40,770 nucleotides of DNA from Escherichia phage mellemsur, in sequence record MN850570.1. The stretch is one strand, 5' to 3'. Of this stretch, positions 20,960 through 28,193 are shown in pieces. Each line of letters begins with the position of its first letter. Position 1 is the first letter of the stretch. The notes beneath the pieces were generated by a model. That model was not told the DNA's origin, searched no databases, and saw only the letters and a program-made list of their open reading frames with translations. The translations under genes and the position numbers were made by a program.

Positions 20960-21952
20960 TTAGGTCCCGGTAGTGACGACTGCCACCACGTCTGGACGAC
21001 GCTGACCCACAGTGTACATGTGGAAGCTATCCAGAACGTTGGTCAGTTCACGTTCGTCATCCCATACGCGGTTGAACAGCGGCTGGGCTTCGACAGTGAC
21101 CAGAGCCAGAGACGGGTCGAAGATAATCATCTTGCGCTGAATCTCGTCGGCGGTGACGTTGAAGTCAGGGCCGAGGATGTGGTCAGTGATTGCCGCCTGC
21201 GGGAACGCGTTGCTCTCGATGATACGGATACCGTTCACGTAAGCCACACGGCGCATTGCGAAGTCGTTGACACCACGGCCACCAGTGAACTCAACGTTCA
21301 TCAGTTTCTTGTGCTCCAGCAGAATGCTGAACCACGCCGGGTCAATCAGCGTAACCAGACGGCCAAGGTCAGCGTCGCGGCGAATGAACGCCTCGATAGC
21401 TTTCTTGTGGCCATGCACCAGCGCAGACGCGTTATCTTCCTCAGATGCCACGGTGTTAGTCAGAGTGACCTGCTCCTTGATACCTGCGTTGAACGCGCCA
21501 GCCAGAGAAGCCGGAGGCACGAAGTCAGCAGACTTCTGGAGCTGGATGACGTGCGCTTGGTCGAACGCCTTAGCCTGAGCAGTACCCATGTTACGGGTCA
21601 GCTCGGCACGGAAGTCCGGCGCAGTCCAGTCGTCCTGATAGTCAATCGGGATACGGATGTAAGACACGGTATCCACAGTGACAATCAGTTTCTCAGAGCG
21701 AACAGGCTGGTTGTCCAGCGCCTCGCCAGAGCGACGACCTTTAACGGTCACAGAGCCGAGACGGTCGCCACGCCAAGTGTTGGACTGGTTAGCCACAGAC
21801 TTGAAGTTGGTCAGACCGGAACGGAAGATGGAGTTGTAAATGAACTGGGTCTGCACGTCACGGTCATACACCTCAAGGTGAATGTCGTTGTCAGAGTTCG
21901 CGCCACCCCAGTGTGGACGGAACTGGTTCGGGGTATAAGCGTTATCAGCCAT
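20960..21952 (-). CDS. major capsid protein
   Basis: 330 aa; position after scaffold, before tail tube genes; followed by terminator. Confidence 0.8.
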   Translation of the reverse strand: MADNAYTPNQFRPHWGGANSDNDIHLEVYDRDVQTQFIYNSIFRSGLTNFKSVANQSNTWRGDRLGSVTVKGRRSGEALDNQPVRSEKLIVTVDTVSYIRIPIDYQDDWTAPDFRAELTRNMGTAQAKAFDQAHVIQLQKSADFVPPASLAGAFNAGIKEQVTLTNTVASEEDNASALVHGHKKAIEAFIRRDADLGRLVTLIDPAWFSILLEHKKLMNVEFTGGRGVNDFAMRRVAYVNGIRIIESNAFPQAAITDHILGPDFNVTADEIQRKMIIFDPSLALVTVEAQPLFNRVWDDERELTNVLDSFHMYTVGQRRPDVVAVVTTGT

Positions 21953-21972: not shown

Positions 21973-23205
21973 TTAGTAACCTTGAGCTTTAGCCTGACGG
22001 CGCTGCTCTACCAGTACGGCGTAATGCTTGTTGTATTCCGGGGAACCAACAGGATGCGCCTGCTCAAGCCAGCCAAGATGCTGACGGAATGCCTCGTTGG
22101 TCATAATCTCACGAGGTGCTTGACCGCCACCATTAGGCGTCAAAGTTTGTCCAGAGCGCTGAATCAAGTTCCCTGCGGAACCAGCGAACTGGAGAATGGT
22201 GTTCACTGCCAGACGTACCTGATTAGGGTCGCCGGAGTTAACAGCCGCGACAACAGCATCAATAGTGCCCTTGTCAGCAGCAGTATTGAATGCCTGTACA
22301 GCCAGACCCCATCGTTCCTCGCCGCCAGCCATCTGGTAAACCTGCTGCTCGATTGCAGCGTCGCGCTGCTGACCAGCCGCAACCAGTGCGCCGAATTGAC
22401 CTTTGAGGATTGATACAGTCTGTGGGTCGAACTGAGCCAGATAGCGGTCGTTCACCAGAGACGGGTCACGACGCTCGTAAGCAGAACCGAACGCTGCAAG
22501 CAGGTCGATGTTCTGGCCACGGGCAATGGTGTCCATGCCTTGGAATACGGCGCGACTGGTATCGTCCGGGAAAATCTGAGCAACCTGCTCTGCTGTCAGG
22601 CCACCTTCCTGAGTCGCCAGTTTCTCAGCCGTGAGGTTGGGATTCTGGAACTGCTGCGGCGGTTGACCCGGCTGCTGCGGCTGCAACTGCTGGAAAGGTT
22701 GCGGCTGCTGCTGCTGAGGCTGCGGTGCCTGCGGCTGGCCCGGCTGACGACCGTACGGGTCGAAAGCATAAGGCTGCGGAGCTACAGGGTTCTGGAACTG
22801 CTGTGCCGGAGCCGCTTGGCCCGGAGGCGTTGCGCCCGGATTCTGATACCCATTAACCGGAATTGGTGGTGCCGCAAACGGAGAGGTCTGCTGCGGAGCA
22901 CCATACGGGTTCTGCTGAGGTACGGGTGCGTAAGGACTTGGGTTTCCCTGTTGGGGCTGTGCATACGGGTTGTGCTCCTGTGCAGGAATCAGGCCCGGCT
23001 GCTGTCCGAACGGCTGCGCTGGCTGCGGGGTAGCGCCACCACGAGGTAACTCGATAGGCGTACCCAGTCGGCCTAGCGCTGGGTTCTGTACCACCTGTGG
23101 GCTTCCACCATAATCATTACCGCCGTGACCAGAGGGAGTATAGGTCGGGCCAGCGGGTACGTTTTGGGGAGCGGGTGCGGCAGTAGGTTGGGATTCACCA
23201 AACAT
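21973..23205 (-). CDS. scaffolding protein with N-terminal Pro/Gln-rich low-complexity region
   Basis: 410 aa between portal and capsid; first about 190 aa dominated by P/Q/G/A (QPQ, PQQ runs). Confidence 0.6.
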   Translation of the reverse strand: MFGESQPTAAPAPQNVPAGPTYTPSGHGGNDYGGSPQVVQNPALGRLGTPIELPRGGATPQPAQPFGQQPGLIPAQEHNPYAQPQQGNPSPYAPVPQQNPYGAPQQTSPFAAPPIPVNGYQNPGATPPGQAAPAQQFQNPVAPQPYAFDPYGRQPGQPQAPQPQQQQPQPFQQLQPQQPGQPPQQFQNPNLTAEKLATQEGGLTAEQVAQIFPDDTSRAVFQGMDTIARGQNIDLLAAFGSAYERRDPSLVNDRYLAQFDPQTVSILKGQFGALVAAGQQRDAAIEQQVYQMAGGEERWGLAVQAFNTAADKGTIDAVVAAVNSGDPNQVRLAVNTILQFAGSAGNLIQRSGQTLTPNGGGQAPREIMTNEAFRQHLGWLEQAHPVGSPEYNKHYAVLVEQRRQAKAQGY

Positions 23206-23215
23206 GTATTCTCCA

Positions 23216-24781
23216 TTAAATCTGTGCGATGTTAGGCGCTACATCAACTGCGCCCGGCTGTACGCCAGCGGCGGCAGCGGCTGCATTGTCGATGGCCTGA
23301 CCTTCTTGGGCCAAGTCTTGTGGCGACTTACGATAGTCGTCCAGCGCAACACCATTGGAGGCAAAGATAACCTCAAGGACTTTCTGAGGGTCGATGGTGT
23401 TAGCAACGCCATTAATATTCTGGACAGCAACCATTGCTGCCTGCGAGTCGGAGAGCGCTCTGATAAGCGTCTCAGCTTCAATGCTTCGACCGAGGGCATC
23501 CAAGCCAGCTTCGACTTGAAGCGACAGGATGTTGCCGACGATATCTGGTACGGTGGACTCGTCAATCTCCGCGAGCAGGACATACGCCAGAGGAATCTGG
23601 AGGGTCTTAGCCTGCATTGAGTACGGCCCACCCAGCCCACGCTCGGCGCTGGTTGCTACCTGCTGCACTTCGGTGGCGGTGGTACGTTCGGAGTCACGGA
23701 ACTCACCAGTGTACATGAAGGCTTGCGCCAGTCGCTGCACAATCTGGTTGATTTCGTCACGGGCCTGTTGAACTTTCTGGTAGTCCCCGACCTCCAGCCC
23801 CGACAACGTGGTGCCGTTCTGGAGTGGAATGACCTGCCCAGTCTCTGCGCTCTCAATGTCATCGACGTTGCCGCCAGAGCCAGTGAGCATCCACAGCACG
23901 CGTAGCGCTTCCTGCATGTACAGAGCAGAATGCTCAGACAGGAGCGACAGACGTGCGAAATCCCCAGCGTGGTCTTCGACAATCCCGCGACCGTAATGCT
24001 CGCCAGACTTCAAAGACCACACTGGGAATAACCATGGGCAGACTTTTTCAGGGTAGTAATCTTTACCGGGGGTATAGACGCAGCCTTGGTAGTTGCCAAT
24101 CTGCTGCGTTACTTCGTAGCCGTAATTGCCACTGTCCTTCTGAACGCGAAGGACGCGGGTATACAGCCACACGCGTTTGTTCCCACCACAGCGGAAGCCT
24201 TTGGAGTTCAGCTCATTCTGAAAGTCCTTCGGCAGAGAATCCCACTGGATGCGCTCCTTGACAATAGCATCCACCACAACGCCACGACCGTCGCGCTGCA
24301 CCACGAAGGATTCCAATCCGTACACTCGGTACGAACCAGTTTCCATATCGCGGTACAGCGCGGCGTTTCCGGTCACAGCTTGTTGGGCAATGCACTGGAG
24401 CAGGTCAGCGTAGCCGCCATTCTCTTTGGCTTTGTCTACGATGGCCTTCTCAATAGTGATAAGCGCCTGATTCACTTGCGACATAGACTGCCGCTGTTGG
24501 TCAGACACCTTGTTTAATTTCAGCTTCACGAATCGTGCGGAAGCCGGGAACAGGAACTCACCCAACCGAGCGGTCAGGTTGTTGACGAGCAGAGCGCCGA
24601 CAGACTGGTAATCACGAGTAATCTGCTGGCGGTTCATGTCGTCCACGTCACTGCGGTCGTACTCGCTCACCAGCTTAGCCAGTGTGTAGCGGCTGTACTC
24701 CCGCGCTTTCGTGACAACGTTGCTATCCCGGTACTTCTGCCACAGAGACTCATAGCTGACGTTCTGCGCGTCTTGAGTCAT
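23216..24781 (-). CDS. portal (head-tail connector) protein
   Basis: 521 aa (T7 gp8 size class); position upstream of scaffold/capsid. Confidence 0.75.
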   Translation of the reverse strand: MTQDAQNVSYESLWQKYRDSNVVTKAREYSRYTLAKLVSEYDRSDVDDMNRQQITRDYQSVGALLVNNLTARLGEFLFPASARFVKLKLNKVSDQQRQSMSQVNQALITIEKAIVDKAKENGGYADLLQCIAQQAVTGNAALYRDMETGSYRVYGLESFVVQRDGRGVVVDAIVKERIQWDSLPKDFQNELNSKGFRCGGNKRVWLYTRVLRVQKDSGNYGYEVTQQIGNYQGCVYTPGKDYYPEKVCPWLFPVWSLKSGEHYGRGIVEDHAGDFARLSLLSEHSALYMQEALRVLWMLTGSGGNVDDIESAETGQVIPLQNGTTLSGLEVGDYQKVQQARDEINQIVQRLAQAFMYTGEFRDSERTTATEVQQVATSAERGLGGPYSMQAKTLQIPLAYVLLAEIDESTVPDIVGNILSLQVEAGLDALGRSIEAETLIRALSDSQAAMVAVQNINGVANTIDPQKVLEVIFASNGVALDDYRKSPQDLAQEGQAIDNAAAAAAGVQPGAVDVAPNIAQI

Positions 24782-24783
24782 GC

Positions 24784-25044
24784 TTAGCTCCCAATGCCGA
24801 GGTTACTTGCCACACCAGTTCCGGTGCGACGGCGGCGACCACCCAGCGTATCAGAGGCCGAGCTTACTTGGCCACCTGCCTGAATGGTTGGGGTGTTCTC
24901 ACCAGCGAGGTCGGCTGCAAGGTTAGCCTGCATGGTTTCTGCCTTTACCTGCGCCGGGTCAGTCTTGATAGTGTACTGCGGCTTTTGGCTACCCAGTCCG
25001 AAGACGGAGCCAATGCCCTTGAATACTTTGCCTACGCTACCCAT
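24784..25044 (-). CDS. hypothetical protein (possible small virion protein)
   Basis: 86 aa Gly/Ser-rich with Arg cluster; directly upstream of portal. Confidence 0.4.
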   Translation of the reverse strand: MGSVGKVFKGIGSVFGLGSQKPQYTIKTDPAQVKAETMQANLAADLAGENTPTIQAGGQVSSASDTLGGRRRRTGTGVASNLGIGS

Positions 25045-25463
25045 TACGGTTTCTCCAAATCAATGAAGCGGTACTCCTGAACGTAAGGCCGCACCATATG
25101 GGAGTAACCGCACCAACGCACACCCGCTGAACGGGCCACGTCTTTGAGTACACGGAGGATGGCACGCATCACTCCACGGTTTCTGTACTGGGGCCAGACG
25201 TATGAGGCCATAACGACCACCATCTCGCCCACATGAATATCGAATAATCTGCCGATGTGAGCGACAGCCATGAGGCTGCCGTCATCGTCAGTGATGTAAA
25301 CGTCAACGCAACCGGAGGCGGTGGCCTCATACATGCTGTCAACAATCACATCGGGAGATAGGTCTGACCATGGCCGCTCAGCTTGAATACCTTCGGCCAC
25401 AGCACGGCGAATGTCGAGTGGCATCGTCGTGTGTGATGTATTTCCCATAGTAGACACTTTCAT
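25044..25463 (-). CDS. hypothetical protein, possible GNAT-like acetyltransferase
   Basis: 139 aa; segment WPQYRNRGVMRAIL resembles GNAT motif A; weak. Confidence 0.35.
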   Translation of the reverse strand: MKVSTMGNTSHTTMPLDIRRAVAEGIQAERPWSDLSPDVIVDSMYEATASGCVDVYITDDDGSLMAVAHIGRLFDIHVGEMVVVMASYVWPQYRNRGVMRAILRVLKDVARSAGVRWCGYSHMVRPYVQEYRFIDLEKP

Positions 25464-25760: not shown

Positions 25761-28193
25761 TCAGCAGAAAAACTTGCTTGATTGTTTCACAAGCTGGATA
25801 TCCAGATTGCCCCGTTCGGGTGCAACAGCATTGTATCGTACAGCAAGTTGTTGAATTGGGTCATGTTGCTCATACATCTGTACGAACTTTTCACGAATGA
25901 CCTTGTGGAGTAACCCGGCATGTGCAGCCGCCACCCCGAACGAATCGTGGATGGACACCATGTACACCCCGTTATTCCACATCTCCCACAACACCTTCAT
26001 CATGTGGCTAGCATCCATGGCGTGTACGAAATTCGGAGCAATCGCAGCGGCACACTTCCTGCCGTCCGGCTTGTCCAGATACTCGCGCAGCTTAATGCTG
26101 TGGATACCCATGAGGTTGATGTTGTTGAGCATCGTCTCCTTGCTGGCTTGATACAGGTTAACCACCCGCAACCCCGATGGTGCAATGATTTCCACGTACT
26201 CGCCGTTGGCTGCCGCCTCAACAGCGATAGCCTGCAACCATGCCATCAGCTCTGCCGCCTTCGGCACAACGCGAGGGATTGCATTCCACATAAACTCTGC
26301 GATGAACTGCGCACACTCCAGCAGGCTCTTGCCGTCCGGCAGCTTGACCCGGTTCTCTCGCAGGTACAGGCAGTAGTAGTCCACCATGCCGTGCCGGGTT
26401 GCCCCGTACACGTAGGTCATCACTGGCTTCTTAGCCATCGCCCGGACAATACCGATTGAAACAAGCCACGTACCCATCTGCGTCGGTGACTGCGCCTCAC
26501 TATCTTCAAGAGCCTGCATCGCCGCTGCTGCCGTCTTGAGATATATGTCTGCTTTTCTTCCCACGCTATTGATAAGATTGACAGCAGCACCGCCAACTTC
26601 ATCTCGTAGCATCGCACTGAGGTGCTGTAATCCTGAACAGGTAGCGTCCCATTGCGTAACCACTCGGCAGGGATAAGTCTCAGGACTTCCTGAGTCGATA
26701 GCGCGAATGAGTTCAACAGAGGCAGCCCACGCGCTGATAGGGCTATCGGCTTCTGACCAGAACGAATCAAATGCCTCTGGAAGACGGCACGCCTCACGTA
26801 GTCGGGGGAGTGTCTTGTCCGTCCACGCCGCCCGGTCGTCGAAGTCTGTTGCGTCGTAGCCGAAGCAATTCGCAACATGAACCTTGAGCCAGAACAGCCC
26901 CTCAGTTCCGAGAGCCACTGGTTCCGCAAGCTCAAGCAGCGCTCGCACTGCGTCGATAGACTGAGGGTTAAGGGTCGAAGAATAATAAATTCGGCCCCGC
27001 GTATCGGCGTAAGTCGGGAGATAAATCCTATCGTACTGTGCATACCTGTCTGCCTCTTTGACTGCACCATTCAACGCCAGCATCTGCGACGTGAACTTAC
27101 GCAACTCATTGTAATACAAGCGAGTCTTCACCTTGTACTCATGAGCTTCGGCACCCATCTGCTGCTGCATCTCTGGTGGGAACTTGCTGATGTACTGTGC
27201 AAAGCTCACACCAGCGGGGATGGTGAACGGAAGTGTAGGCTCACGGGGTGGCACAGGCAGCCCCATAACGCCTGTACGGTTCGTTCGCAGGAACTCCAGT
27301 ACCATTGGGTTAACTCGGTACGGAACGCTGCTGAGCATCATACACGGCTCTATAACGGGGGTCGGGTCAACGTTCAATGCACGATACCCTTTGTGGTTCA
27401 TGCGGCTCATGACCCGGTACATCGCCGCCTGCCCATCGGAATGCCACATACCGCTGCGACCGTTCGGGGCAATCTGCTTCGGTGGGATAATCAGCGGTGG
27501 GCAGCACATGCCATCAGCACGCGGCATGTCCAGCCAGTCGTTCATCGTAGCCAGCACATCTTCGTGCAGTGCGAAGTGTGCCGTACCGCGCTGGCGCTGG
27601 TTGCCGCCGGCGCGAATCGTGGACACCAGACCAGTTGGCTCGACGCACTTCATCATCAGCTTGCCAATGGTAATCAGCGCACGCTGCGGCAGCACATCAA
27701 TCTCTACCCCAACGTTCGCCGCCGACGCACGCGCTTTGTTGTAGACGTGGTTCGCTGACTTCGAGCGAGACTTCTTCACGTCCTGCTTAACGCGCTCCAT
27801 GTACGCCGCCTGCTGTGGCCCGGTCTGCTTCGCCCGGAGGTACACTACCTCAGCCATCAGTGCCTTGCCCATGCTCTTGAGCAGACTCAGTACCGCCTGC
27901 TCCGACGCAGCACCGGACACCGCCATGCTCAGTGCGAGAGAGGCACACGCTTTGGTGCCAATCTCACGCATGTACGTCCGGTACTGCGCACCATACCCAC
28001 GGGTCGTTTCGCTCAAGGTTTCTTGCATCGCAGCTTCGACCAGAGGATAAGCCTCAACCATCATACGCTGGAGCAACGGCACCGACCCGGCGCGGCCACT
28101 GGCCATCGCCTCTTTGATATTATCCAGCCAGCCCTCGCGGTGTCTGGCTCGCGCTTCTTCTTCAAGTCGAATCTGCTCTGCAAGTAAATCCAC
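25761..28193 (-). CDS. single-subunit DNA-dependent RNA polymerase (T7/phiKMV-type)
   Basis: 810 aa; DATCSGLQHLSAML (T7 RNAP motif A region) and SIHDSFG (motif C region). Confidence 0.9.
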   Translation of the reverse strand: MDLLAEQIRLEEEARARHREGWLDNIKEAMASGRAGSVPLLQRMMVEAYPLVEAAMQETLSETTRGYGAQYRTYMREIGTKACASLALSMAVSGAASEQAVLSLLKSMGKALMAEVVYLRAKQTGPQQAAYMERVKQDVKKSRSKSANHVYNKARASAANVGVEIDVLPQRALITIGKLMMKCVEPTGLVSTIRAGGNQRQRGTAHFALHEDVLATMNDWLDMPRADGMCCPPLIIPPKQIAPNGRSGMWHSDGQAAMYRVMSRMNHKGYRALNVDPTPVIEPCMMLSSVPYRVNPMVLEFLRTNRTGVMGLPVPPREPTLPFTIPAGVSFAQYISKFPPEMQQQMGAEAHEYKVKTRLYYNELRKFTSQMLALNGAVKEADRYAQYDRIYLPTYADTRGRIYYSSTLNPQSIDAVRALLELAEPVALGTEGLFWLKVHVANCFGYDATDFDDRAAWTDKTLPRLREACRLPEAFDSFWSEADSPISAWAASVELIRAIDSGSPETYPCRVVTQWDATCSGLQHLSAMLRDEVGGAAVNLINSVGRKADIYLKTAAAAMQALEDSEAQSPTQMGTWLVSIGIVRAMAKKPVMTYVYGATRHGMVDYYCLYLRENRVKLPDGKSLLECAQFIAEFMWNAIPRVVPKAAELMAWLQAIAVEAAANGEYVEIIAPSGLRVVNLYQASKETMLNNINLMGIHSIKLREYLDKPDGRKCAAAIAPNFVHAMDASHMMKVLWEMWNNGVYMVSIHDSFGVAAAHAGLLHKVIREKFVQMYEQHDPIQQLAVRYNAVAPERGNLDIQLVKQSSKFFC

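Follow-up and report, generated by a model that had tools for sequence, protein, structure and literature searches.

The inner layer formed by head scaffolding proteins is largely disordered and touches the portal (PMC12005531). In P22 and T7, the disordered N-termini of these proteins are acidic, and their charge is thought to aid expulsion by the incoming DNA; the N-terminal arm of the scaffold of Escherichia phage mellemsur is neutral. The literature searched on the scaffolds of LIMEzero, phiKMV and Bonnellvirus, on proline-rich scaffolds and on phage prion-like domains contains nothing specific to the scaffold N-terminal region, and no proteomic or genetic data on any bonnellvirus scaffold were found there. 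The mellemsur gene was already deposited and annotated as a scaffold gene before this analysis, and its product equals QHR65424.1 (Escherichia phage mellemsur, Bonnellvirus; annotated scaffolding protein) letter for letter. Within the window, the whole 40,770-nucleotide stretch of DNA analysed, it is the sole long ORF at its locus (Table 1), and the portal-scaffold-capsid gene order is common to megetsur, LIMEzero, phiKMV-like phage and T7. The product matches phrog_36307 over residues 1-410 (E 7.7e-213) and phrog_1018 over residues 134-410 (E 1.9e-15), the same two PHROGs that phiKMV-like and Drulisvirus scaffolds match. These matches, together with the position between the portal and major capsid genes, bear out the scaffolding identity assigned by the original prediction and, at the level of sequence, make the gene a member of the phiKMV-type head scaffolding proteins (PHROG 1018 / 36307). 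No Pfam family matched the protein at E <= 0.01, and the PDB yielded no relatives by sequence (searched with the protein and with a 16-sequence profile) or by fold.

Table 1. Features of the mellemsur scaffold locus (window coordinates)
Feature	Coordinates	Strand	Remarks
Major capsid gene	20960..21952	-	phrog_267, E 3e-79
Scaffolding-protein gene, complete	21973..23205	-	410 aa + stop (ORF list); calculated mass ~43.6 kDa
C-terminal scaffold domain, residues 205-410	21976..22593	-	Predicted helical (AlphaFold2), basic terminus EQRRQAKAQGY
N-terminal extension, residues 1-190	22636..23205	-	P/Q/G/A-rich, nearly uncharged, predicted disordered
QPQ-rich tract, residues 153-187	22645..22749	-	Only length-variable part of the arm; only tandem-repeat-like DNA (TRF 22645-22692, 22700-22737)
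PPGQAAP motif and aromatic cluster YAFDPYG, residues 127-152	22750..22827	-	Intervening segment has two alleles among bonnellviruses
Degenerate ~10-residue repeats NPY / SPY / NPY / SPF / NGY, residues 79-120	22846..22971	-	Conserved aromatics
Motif VVQNPALGRLGTPIELP, residues 38-54	23044..23094	-	Conserved; sole part of the arm with any predicted local structure
Shine-Dalgarno GGAG	23211..23214	-	Read from the sequence; 5 nt upstream of ATG 23203-23205, just past portal stop 23216-23218
Portal gene	23216..24781	-	PF12236, E 4e-50

The scaffold consists of two compositionally distinct halves. Residues 1-190 contain 24.2% P, 21.1% Q, 11.1% G and 10.5% A, 67% in sum, in agreement with the earlier description of an N-terminal half dominated by these residues (the span given there, 22635-23205, covers the codons of residues 1-190 and a single base of codon 191). 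D+E+K+R account for 4.2% of this arm, Y+F for 7.9% and Q+N for 27%, with a net charge of about -2 and a GRAVY of -1.06, whereas residues 191-410 show nothing unusual (3.6% P, 19% charged). The N half has a Shannon entropy of 3.34 bits and the C half one of 3.96 bits; residues 1-190 contain five QPQ and six PQQ units, the C half none of either. The richest 40-residue stretch of the arm is 75% P+Q, compared with 30% in the next-best ORF of the window (ORFs of at least 100 aa, six frames). On the coding strand, CAGCCG occurs seven times in the region (12.3 per kb, 0.70 per kb elsewhere in the window) and CAGCAG, which reads ctgctg on the plus strand, ten times (17.5 per kb, 1.5 per kb elsewhere); GC content is 62.7%, against 55.8% for the whole window. 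The proline codons of the arm are mixed (CCG 22, CCT 11, CCC 7, CCA 6). TRF reports just three short arrays (22645-22692, 22700-22737 and 22806-22840; 2.3-2.7 copies, 63-85% matches, ~120 of 570 bases in total) and no high-identity head-to-tail repeats in the region. True tandem repetition is thus weak, and the low complexity is mainly compositional rather than a matter of repeat DNA. A plus-strand ORF (22540..23049; 169 aa, L/R-rich) runs codon-aligned antisense to the scaffold frame and was rejected as a gene: the antisense frame is free of stops for 100-273 aa in every relative because TTA, CTA and TCA codons are rare, and Bonnellvirus genes are described in the literature as all lying on one strand.

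The arm is predicted to be disordered, as the original prediction had supposed. In the AlphaFold2 model, pLDDT stays below 50 at residues 1-36 and 52-203, and residues 52 to 192 have no secondary structure; the call combines this confidence, obtained with a shallow 16-sequence alignment, with composition. Eleven helices are predicted between residues 193 and 407, and block-mean pLDDT is mostly 67-85 from residue 211 on, with a dip below 50 at 345-365; the chain ends in ...VEQRRQAKAQGY. The similarity to phiKMV-type and Drulisvirus scaffolds lies in the C-terminal domain, and only 9 of 220 alignment columns are gapped in the C half, compared with 149 of 235 in the N half. A helical body with a basic C-terminal end is typical of the coat-binding part of scaffolds, and this domain probably binds coat as well.

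The mellemsur protein had been considered exceptional among T7-type scaffolds, which were taken to be compact and helical. This premise does not hold. N-terminal extensions of 30 aa or more occur in 154 homologues (median ~75 aa), and in 114 of these P+Q+A+G make up at least 50% of the extension. As for T7 itself, 30% of the first 125 residues of gp9 are D/E, and the PDB copy searched contains no solved T7 gp9 chain. Extension chemistry varies across the set, most members being P/A/Q-rich and 13 of the 154 containing at least 15% D/E, and aromatics reach 6% in only 24. The mellemsur clade forms a separate length cluster of 155-191 aa, the next longest extension being 131 aa. By this comparison, the arm is a conserved, enlarged form of the floppy P/A/Q-rich N-terminal extension carried by most homologues, and, among the sequences compared, the versions of the Bonnellvirus/Waewaevirus clade are the longest in the family and the richest in Q and aromatics.

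Within the clade, conservation was assessed across 16 homologues whose overall identity falls as low as 48% and whose N halves are 40-82% identical. Their extensions measure 159-191 aa, remain similar in composition (P 19-25%, Q 18-37%, aromatics 7.6-9.1%, charged 0.5-5%) and share 18 invariant and eight aromatic columns. In motif VVQNPALGRLGTPIELP, V39, N41, P42, A43, L44, G45 and P54 are invariant, and AlphaFold2 places there a pLDDT island of ~52 with a helix at 42-47. In the degenerate repeats, aromatic columns 81, 92, 101, 110 and 120 are kept in 88-100% of the homologues, and N79, P80, Y81, P91, Q97, P100, P109 and P114 are invariant. Further along, conservation reaches at least 90% at P127, Q130, P133 and F148, P150 does not vary and columns 146, 148 and 151 stay aromatic; the two alleles between PPGQAAP and YAFDPYG were seen in an alignment of 14 bonnellvirus genomes. 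dN/dS is 0.21-0.35 in the N half (all informative pairs) and 0.08-0.10 in the C half. On these ratios, the arm is under purifying selection; however, its dN/dS is three times that of the C-terminal domain, and much of it may be constrained in composition only. The suggestion that the arm varies in length held only for its distal part. Among 40 close relatives, all but one of the gap positions, 1-5-codon indels, fall at residues 155-185, overlapping TRF arrays 22645-22737, and residues 150-192 exist in 26 different versions; in phages forsur and usur, the equivalent of the QPQ tract carries the annotation 'repeat_region'. Overall scaffold length, on the other hand, ranges only from 404 to 411 aa in the same set, and the extension keeps to 185-191 aa within the genus and to 155-191 aa across the clade. 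Residues 1-150 are indel-free in the 14 bonnellvirus genomes except for single-codon gaps at residues 68 and 140, and every scaffold ORF in these genomes is in frame, with no frameshift or truncation.

Probably, if far from certainly, the arm is an intrinsically disordered, motif-bearing, flexible arm inside the procapsid of a phiKMV-type scaffold. The helical C-terminal domain would mediate self-association and bind the inner face of the coat shell. The arm would extend into the interior of the procapsid and act there as a flexible tether with several binding sites. The motifs NPALGxLGTPIxLP, the NPY/SPY repeats, PPGQAAP, [YF]x[FY][ND]PYG and QPFQQLQ may act as weak-contact sites that engage, as nucleation proceeds, either other scaffold copies or the portal and the proteins of the internal core. 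The QPQ tract would be a linker that tolerates the gain or loss of a few codons by replication slippage. We know of no prohead protease gene in the phage family of mellemsur, and the scaffold would therefore have to exit the shell intact; a proline-rich chain unable to fold or aggregate would suit such an exit.

Several other explanations bear on the existence and use of the region. It might be an artefact, assembled wrongly or left untranslated, with the real protein beginning internally, and some records do contain shorter proteins from an internal start (277 aa in Cronobacter phage RZ4; 372, 368 and 305 aa in cluster members). However, RZ4 and all 14 genomes retain an undamaged full-length ORF, substitutions show purifying selection in the scaffold frame, and the start codon and Shine-Dalgarno sequence are conserved: the TAA-(N)-GGAG-N5-ATG layout also occurs in megetsur, forsur, usur, J8-65, Lidtsur and LIMEzero, which argues that the low-complexity region is translated from a conserved, well-placed start. 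The internal starts M224, M292 and M368 have no properly spaced Shine-Dalgarno sequence. A short scaffold made from one of them was rejected on this ground and on the intact full ORFs of the relatives, which also make the shorter database entries annotation choices. The deposited protein is identical, and scaffold versions 99% identical are found in four independently deposited genomes; the artefact for which the original prediction had allowed is almost certainly not the explanation. The region might instead be real but unused, slippage and recombination having inflated an ancestral P/Q-rich linker whose extra residues are merely tolerated. The micro-indels and 26 QPQ-tract variants among the 40 close relatives, the weak tandem DNA arrays and the fact that other family members function with extensions of 30-90 aa are consistent with such neutral expansion, but dN/dS well below 1, the narrow length range kept in genus and clade, the invariant motifs and the intact reading frames in 14 genomes make it distinctly improbable. 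A role in host interaction, raised in the original prediction, with the arm binding or mimicking a host protein, is more improbable still. The P/Q-rich linkers of two host proteins of the envelope and of cell division, ZipA and FtsK, resemble the arm in composition, and this resemblance is the sole basis for the idea. Against it, a full-length search of 5.8 billion proteins, in which the 8000 most word-sharing candidates were scored, returned only scaffold orthologues and no other architecture carrying the arm; moreover, the arm belongs to a protein whose place of action is the procapsid interior, and residues 1-130 are nearly identical in relatives on Escherichia, Enterobacter, Pantoea, Cronobacter and Kosakonia.

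The remaining alternatives concern how a functional arm would work. It might be a passive entropic spacer without specific partners, selected for length, disorder, neutrality and solubility only, which would fill the procapsid, exclude cytoplasmic macromolecules and let the scaffold thread out through openings in the shell. The diversity of extension sequence and chemistry across the family, from mostly P/A/Q-rich to acidic in 13 of 154 and in T7 gp9, argues for such a generic physical role, as do the higher dN/dS of the arm and its many gapped alignment columns. Nevertheless, 18 positions remain invariant, eight columns stay aromatic and a 17-residue motif retains seven invariant residues at 40-50% N-half identity, which goes beyond what selection on bulk properties predicts, and residues 1-150 are almost free of indels in the 14 genomes; we consider a purely passive spacer unlikely, while giving it some weight. 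Alternatively, in line with a suggestion of the original prediction, the arm could be a prion-like sticker-and-spacer domain whose aromatics let copies associate with one another weakly and at many points; scaffold and coat protein would thereby gather in a dense phase from which procapsids nucleate. Its composition is prion-like (polar, low in charge, Q/N-rich, with interspersed aromatics), its aromatic fraction stays at 7.6-9.1% in all 16 homologues and exceeds that of most of the family, and Y81, Y92, Y101, F110 and Y120 are spaced 9-11 residues apart. Taking ~100-140 scaffold copies and a shell of ~22 nm inner radius as assumed figures, a rough estimate puts the arm alone at millimolar concentration, a density typical of condensates. 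However, when the coefficient of variation of aromatic spacing was compared with 5000 shuffles in each of the 16 sequences, p was 0.002-0.09 in five (0.05 in the mellemsur protein, 0.002-0.004 in two LIMEzero-type sequences) and 0.14-0.80 in the other 11; even spacing is not statistically supported overall and is not robust as a sticker-and-spacer signature. Yeast-type prion domains are low in proline, a trait compatible with amyloid or cross-beta assembly, and the arm, at 24% proline, is unlike amyloid-forming prion domains; nor was a phase-separating phage scaffold found in the literature searched. Assembly through a condensate has a slim chance of being right, as does its more specific form, in which an aromatic-sticker arm would create a condensate-like core on which the T=7 procapsid nucleates and which sets its size, taking the place of the acidic disordered N-termini of T7 and P22.

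Since the low-complexity arm is a family trait rather than an oddity, it carries little weight as a discovery. What deserves attention is that phiKMV-type scaffold N-termini are mostly uncharged and P/A/Q-rich, whereas those of T7 and P22 are acidic, a contrast that was not found discussed in the literature searched, and that the Bonnellvirus/Waewaevirus clade has doubled the family arm in size and loaded it with conserved aromatic motifs. As a genetically tractable coliphage with E. coli K-12 as its host, mellemsur is convenient for studying the roles of disordered arms in nucleation, portal and core recruitment and scaffold exit, and it could be used to probe whether charge is needed for exit.

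Compared with known systems, the likeness to P22 gp8 is one of working mode and implies no membership; a sequence or fold relationship was not detected. The mobile N-terminus of gp8 is negatively charged and comprises ~40 residues, while the neutral mellemsur arm has 190, and the precedent of charge-assisted expulsion proposed for P22 and T7 does not transfer to an arm of neutral charge. T7 gp9 (PHROG 1052) occupies the same position between the portal and capsid genes, and the N-terminal parts of both proteins look non-globular; however, the first 125 residues of gp9 are acidic (30% D/E, 3% K/R), in contrast to the neutral, P/Q-rich mellemsur arm. No solved-structure relatives of gp9 were found by sequence in the PDB copy searched. 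Weak similarity between the two proteins surrounds a (Y/M)AGG(R/E)ER(F/W) segment: phrog_1052 matches the mellemsur scaffold over residues 276-337 only (E 2.8e-4, compared with E 3e-111 for T7 gp9 itself), and hhalign of the two proteins gives E 0.0018 at 15% probability. On these scores, homology of the mellemsur scaffold with gp9 stays below a confident level. The phiKMV-type and Drulisvirus scaffolds (PHROG 1018) have the same gene position and a homologous helical C-terminal domain (25-30% identity to the Pseudomonas and Klebsiella phage proteins), and most carry an uncharged P/A/Q-rich extension. Their extensions are ~40-130 aa long (median ~75), contain more Ala and Val, are usually 0-5% aromatic and have no NPY-type repeats, whereas the 190-aa extension of mellemsur is 21% Q and 8% aromatic. 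Closest are the Bonnellvirus and Waewaevirus scaffolds (J8-65 gp33, LIMEzero gp39; PHROG 36307), orthologues that are 55-99% identical over their full length. LIMEzero-type scaffolds contain 36-37% Q and are without the first ~25 residues, but members of this group differ in nothing essential: apart from micro-indels in the QPQ tract and the two alleles of residues ~134-152, they share the portal-scaffold-capsid order, the P/Q-rich extension of 155-191 aa and its motifs.

The scaffolding protein of mellemsur carries a translated, conserved, predicted-disordered and nearly uncharged 190-residue arm, joined to a helical scaffold domain whose C-terminal end is basic. The observation of a Pro/Gln-rich N-terminus is thereby confirmed, and the interpretation first placed on it is supported in part. 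The protein sequence agrees at every residue with QHR65424.1 ('scaffolding protein [Escherichia phage mellemsur]'); the gene is already deposited and annotated, and belongs to the Bonnellvirus/LIMEzero scaffold family. Among head-scaffolding families, phrog_36307 covers the whole ORF (E 7.7e-213), and residues 134-410 also match phrog_1018 (E 1.9e-15). The window is apparently the entire genome (MN850570), reported as 40,770 bp with 55.8% GC (PMC7552041); the GC content computed here is likewise 55.8%. Mellemsur is a Bonnellvirus, and its T7-type RNA polymerase places it in the Autographiviridae. Megetsur is the nearest among the genome matches listed (99.4% nucleotide identity across the scaffold gene). 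Two small ORFs lie beyond the portal gene. The Gly-rich one has no Pfam match and is a 'putative structural protein' in megetsur; the other, annotated there as no more than hypothetical, matches PF00583, the GNAT acetyltransferases (E 6.3e-5, 23.7 bits; cut-off 20.7 bits).

Scaffold arm and neighbouring features in the mellemsur genome
Feature	Coordinates	Strand	Size	Remarks
Major capsid gene	20960..21952	-		phrog_267, E 3e-79; downstream of scaffold ORF
Scaffolding-protein ORF	21973..23205	-	410 codons	
Antisense ORF	22540-23049	+	169 aa	Leu/Arg-rich; antisense to arm
Scaffold arm	22636-23205	-	190 residues	Residues 1-190
Tandem Repeats Finder arrays	22645-22737			Coincide with variable tract
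Two-allele segment	22750-22805			Residues ~134-152
Scaffold start codon (ATG)	23203-23205	-		
Portal gene	23216..24781	-		PF12236, E 4e-50; directly upstream of scaffold ORF
Gly-rich ORF	24784-25044	-	86 aa	Abuts portal gene on its upstream side
GNAT-like ORF	25044-25463	-	139 aa	Between RNA polymerase and portal module
T7-type single-subunit RNA polymerase	25761..28193			PF00940, E 6e-83

The span of the original prediction corresponds to scaffold residues 1-190 plus one base, and composition and motif counts bear out its description as dominated by P, Q, G and A (24.2, 21.1, 11.1 and 10.5%; 67% together) with QPQ (five) and PQQ (six) units. Charged residues make up 4.2% and Tyr or Phe 7.9%. 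Residues 191-410 are of ordinary composition and contain neither motif. The richest 40-residue stretch of the arm is 75% P+Q, compared with 30% at best elsewhere (all other ORFs of at least 100 aa, six frames). The underlying DNA was also described as repetitive, which holds for the hexamers CAGCCG and CAGCAG (coding strand), ~12 to 18 times as frequent here as elsewhere in the window, but hardly for true tandem repeats: Tandem Repeats Finder reports just three weak, short arrays in the arm (2.3-2.7 copies, 63-85% matches each). Since these arrays are few and weak and all four Pro codons are in use, the low complexity is mostly compositional.

An artefact or untranslated region is so improbable as to be negligible. 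Scaffold copies 99% identical occur in four independently deposited genomes, with dozens more in public assemblies, and the ATG follows GGAG at a 5-nt spacer right after the portal stop codon, an arrangement kept in six relatives including LIMEzero. No correctly positioned Shine-Dalgarno sequence was found at the internal Met codons of the ORF. Some database entries do start internally (277 aa in Cronobacter phage RZ4; 305, 372 and 368 aa among proteins P0014, P0169 and P0195), but the full-length ORF with an intact P/Q-rich region is present in RZ4 (locus L016, LC778449, 1-1236) and in 14/14 genomes examined. The low-complexity N-terminus seems to have led to inconsistent annotation in the short records, the full ORF being verified for RZ4. 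The antisense ORF was considered as a gene and judged a by-product: the codon-aligned antisense frame is stop-free over 100-273 aa in all 14 relatives, as expected because TTA, CTA and TCA codons are rare in the sense gene.

The extension is present in all of 16 homologues with overall identity down to 48%, at 159-191 aa and with a steady make-up (P 19-25%, Q 18-37%, aromatics 7.6-9.1%, charged 0.5-5%). It contains 18 invariant columns, among them V39, N41, P42, A43, L44, G45 and P54 of the motif VVQNPALGRLGTPIELP and N79-P80-Y81, with further NPY/SPY/SPF repeats ~10 residues apart. PPGQAAP and [YF]x[FY][ND]PYG are likewise conserved, and eight aromatic columns are kept in 88-100% of sequences. 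Gapped alignment columns number 149/235 in the N half and 9/220 in the C half. Nei-Gojobori dN/dS across seven phage genes is 0.21-0.35 in the N half and 0.08-0.10 in the C half, so the arm is under purifying selection, albeit weaker than that on the folded domain.

The scaffold is 406-411 aa long in 14 bonnellvirus genomes, with indels in the N half only, and 404-411 aa in 40 close relatives, where all but one of the gap positions fall within residues 155-185; residues 150-192 occur in 26 different versions among these 40. The variable tract coincides with the tandem arrays at 22645-22737 and with the annotated 'repeat_region' of forsur and usur. From this placement, the suspected slippage-type variability is real but confined to ~30 residues and a few codons, overall length hardly changing. 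The adjoining segment occurs as two alleles, QQFQNPVAPQPYAFDPYGRQ and QQPGLAPNNPAYGFNPYGQQ, whose distribution (loci L002, L006 and L015-L017 vs L001, L004 and L005) is discordant with C-domain similarity. dS between mellemsur and J8-65 is 0.39 in the N half and 0.90 in the C half, and between mellemsur and forsur 0.53 and 0.31. The allele discordance and this disagreement between pairs suggest recombination within the scaffold gene.

AlphaFold2, given the 16-sequence alignment, agrees with the proposed intrinsic disorder: pLDDT is below 50 at residues 1-36 and 52-203, and no secondary structure is predicted at 52-192. An island of pLDDT ~52 with a helix at 42-47 lies on the conserved motif. 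The C-terminal domain is predicted to be helical across 205-407 (block-mean pLDDT mostly 67-85, dipping below 50 at 345-365). Neither sequence nor fold searches returned solved relatives of the scaffold, and the PDB copy searched holds no T7 gp9 chain.

Scaffolds form a largely disordered inner layer in contact with the portal (PMC12005531). By analogy with P22, the C-domain would provide shell anchoring and oligomerisation, and the arm may act as a flexible, multivalent tether that reaches into the lumen and, by its conserved short motifs, weakly engages further copies of the scaffold or else the portal and core proteins. Taken as a whole, such a motif-bearing flexible arm inside the procapsid is moderately probable. 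No prohead protease is known from T7-like phages, so the scaffold would have to exit the shell intact, which a proline-rich chain unable to fold or aggregate would suit. As the arm is neutral (net charge about -2), the proposed electrostatic expulsion by DNA cannot be sufficient alone in this lineage.

The arm might instead be a purely passive spacer, an unlikely account. Condensate-type nucleation through aromatic stickers, close to the phase-separation-like assembly originally suggested, is more doubtful still, its prediction of evenly spaced aromatics not being robustly satisfied. Neutral expansion of the arm is about as improbable, with dN/dS, constant length and constant motifs arguing otherwise. 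Host interaction, also raised originally, is very improbable. None of these displaces the flexible tether as the preferred reading.

A scaffold arm would not surprise a specialist. A phmmer search of 1.84 billion representatives with the C-domain alone gave 170 homologues, 165 of which were re-aligned; their N-terminal extensions have a median of ~75 aa (5th-95th percentile 38-185). P+Q+A+G reaches at least 50% in 114/154 extensions of at least 30 aa, D/E at least 15% in 13 of those surveyed, and aromatics at least 6% in just 24. Bonnellvirus/Waewaevirus extensions form a separate cluster of 155-191 aa, the next longest being 131 aa. Shorter versions occur in scaffolds of a phiKMV-like Pseudomonas phage (322 aa) and of Drulisvirus (280 aa), and the J8-65 record describes only its 'C-terminal half' as 'similar to LIMEzero gp39'. 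A literature search found no paper discussing the P/Q-rich scaffold region. Likeness to T7 gp9 is marginal (phrog_1052, E 2.8e-4 over 61 residues; hhalign E 0.0018, 15% probability). The premise that T7-type scaffolds are compact and helical, with mellemsur the exception, fails because most surveyed extensions are P+Q+A+G-rich and the gp9 N-terminus is itself acidic (30% D/E in its first 125 residues). These scaffolds as a rule have an N-terminal part that is not globular; the mellemsur arm is distinctive for how long and how neutral it is and for a motif pattern rich in Q and aromatics. The N-termini of the P22 and T7 scaffolds are acidic, whereas the mellemsur arm is not, and the contrast of neutral P/Q-rich with acidic disordered arms is a neat question that can be put to the test in a phage of E. 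coli K-12. The protein is best classed as a phiKMV-type scaffold whose N-terminal extension, predicted to be disordered, is among the longest in the family and among the richest in Q and aromatics.
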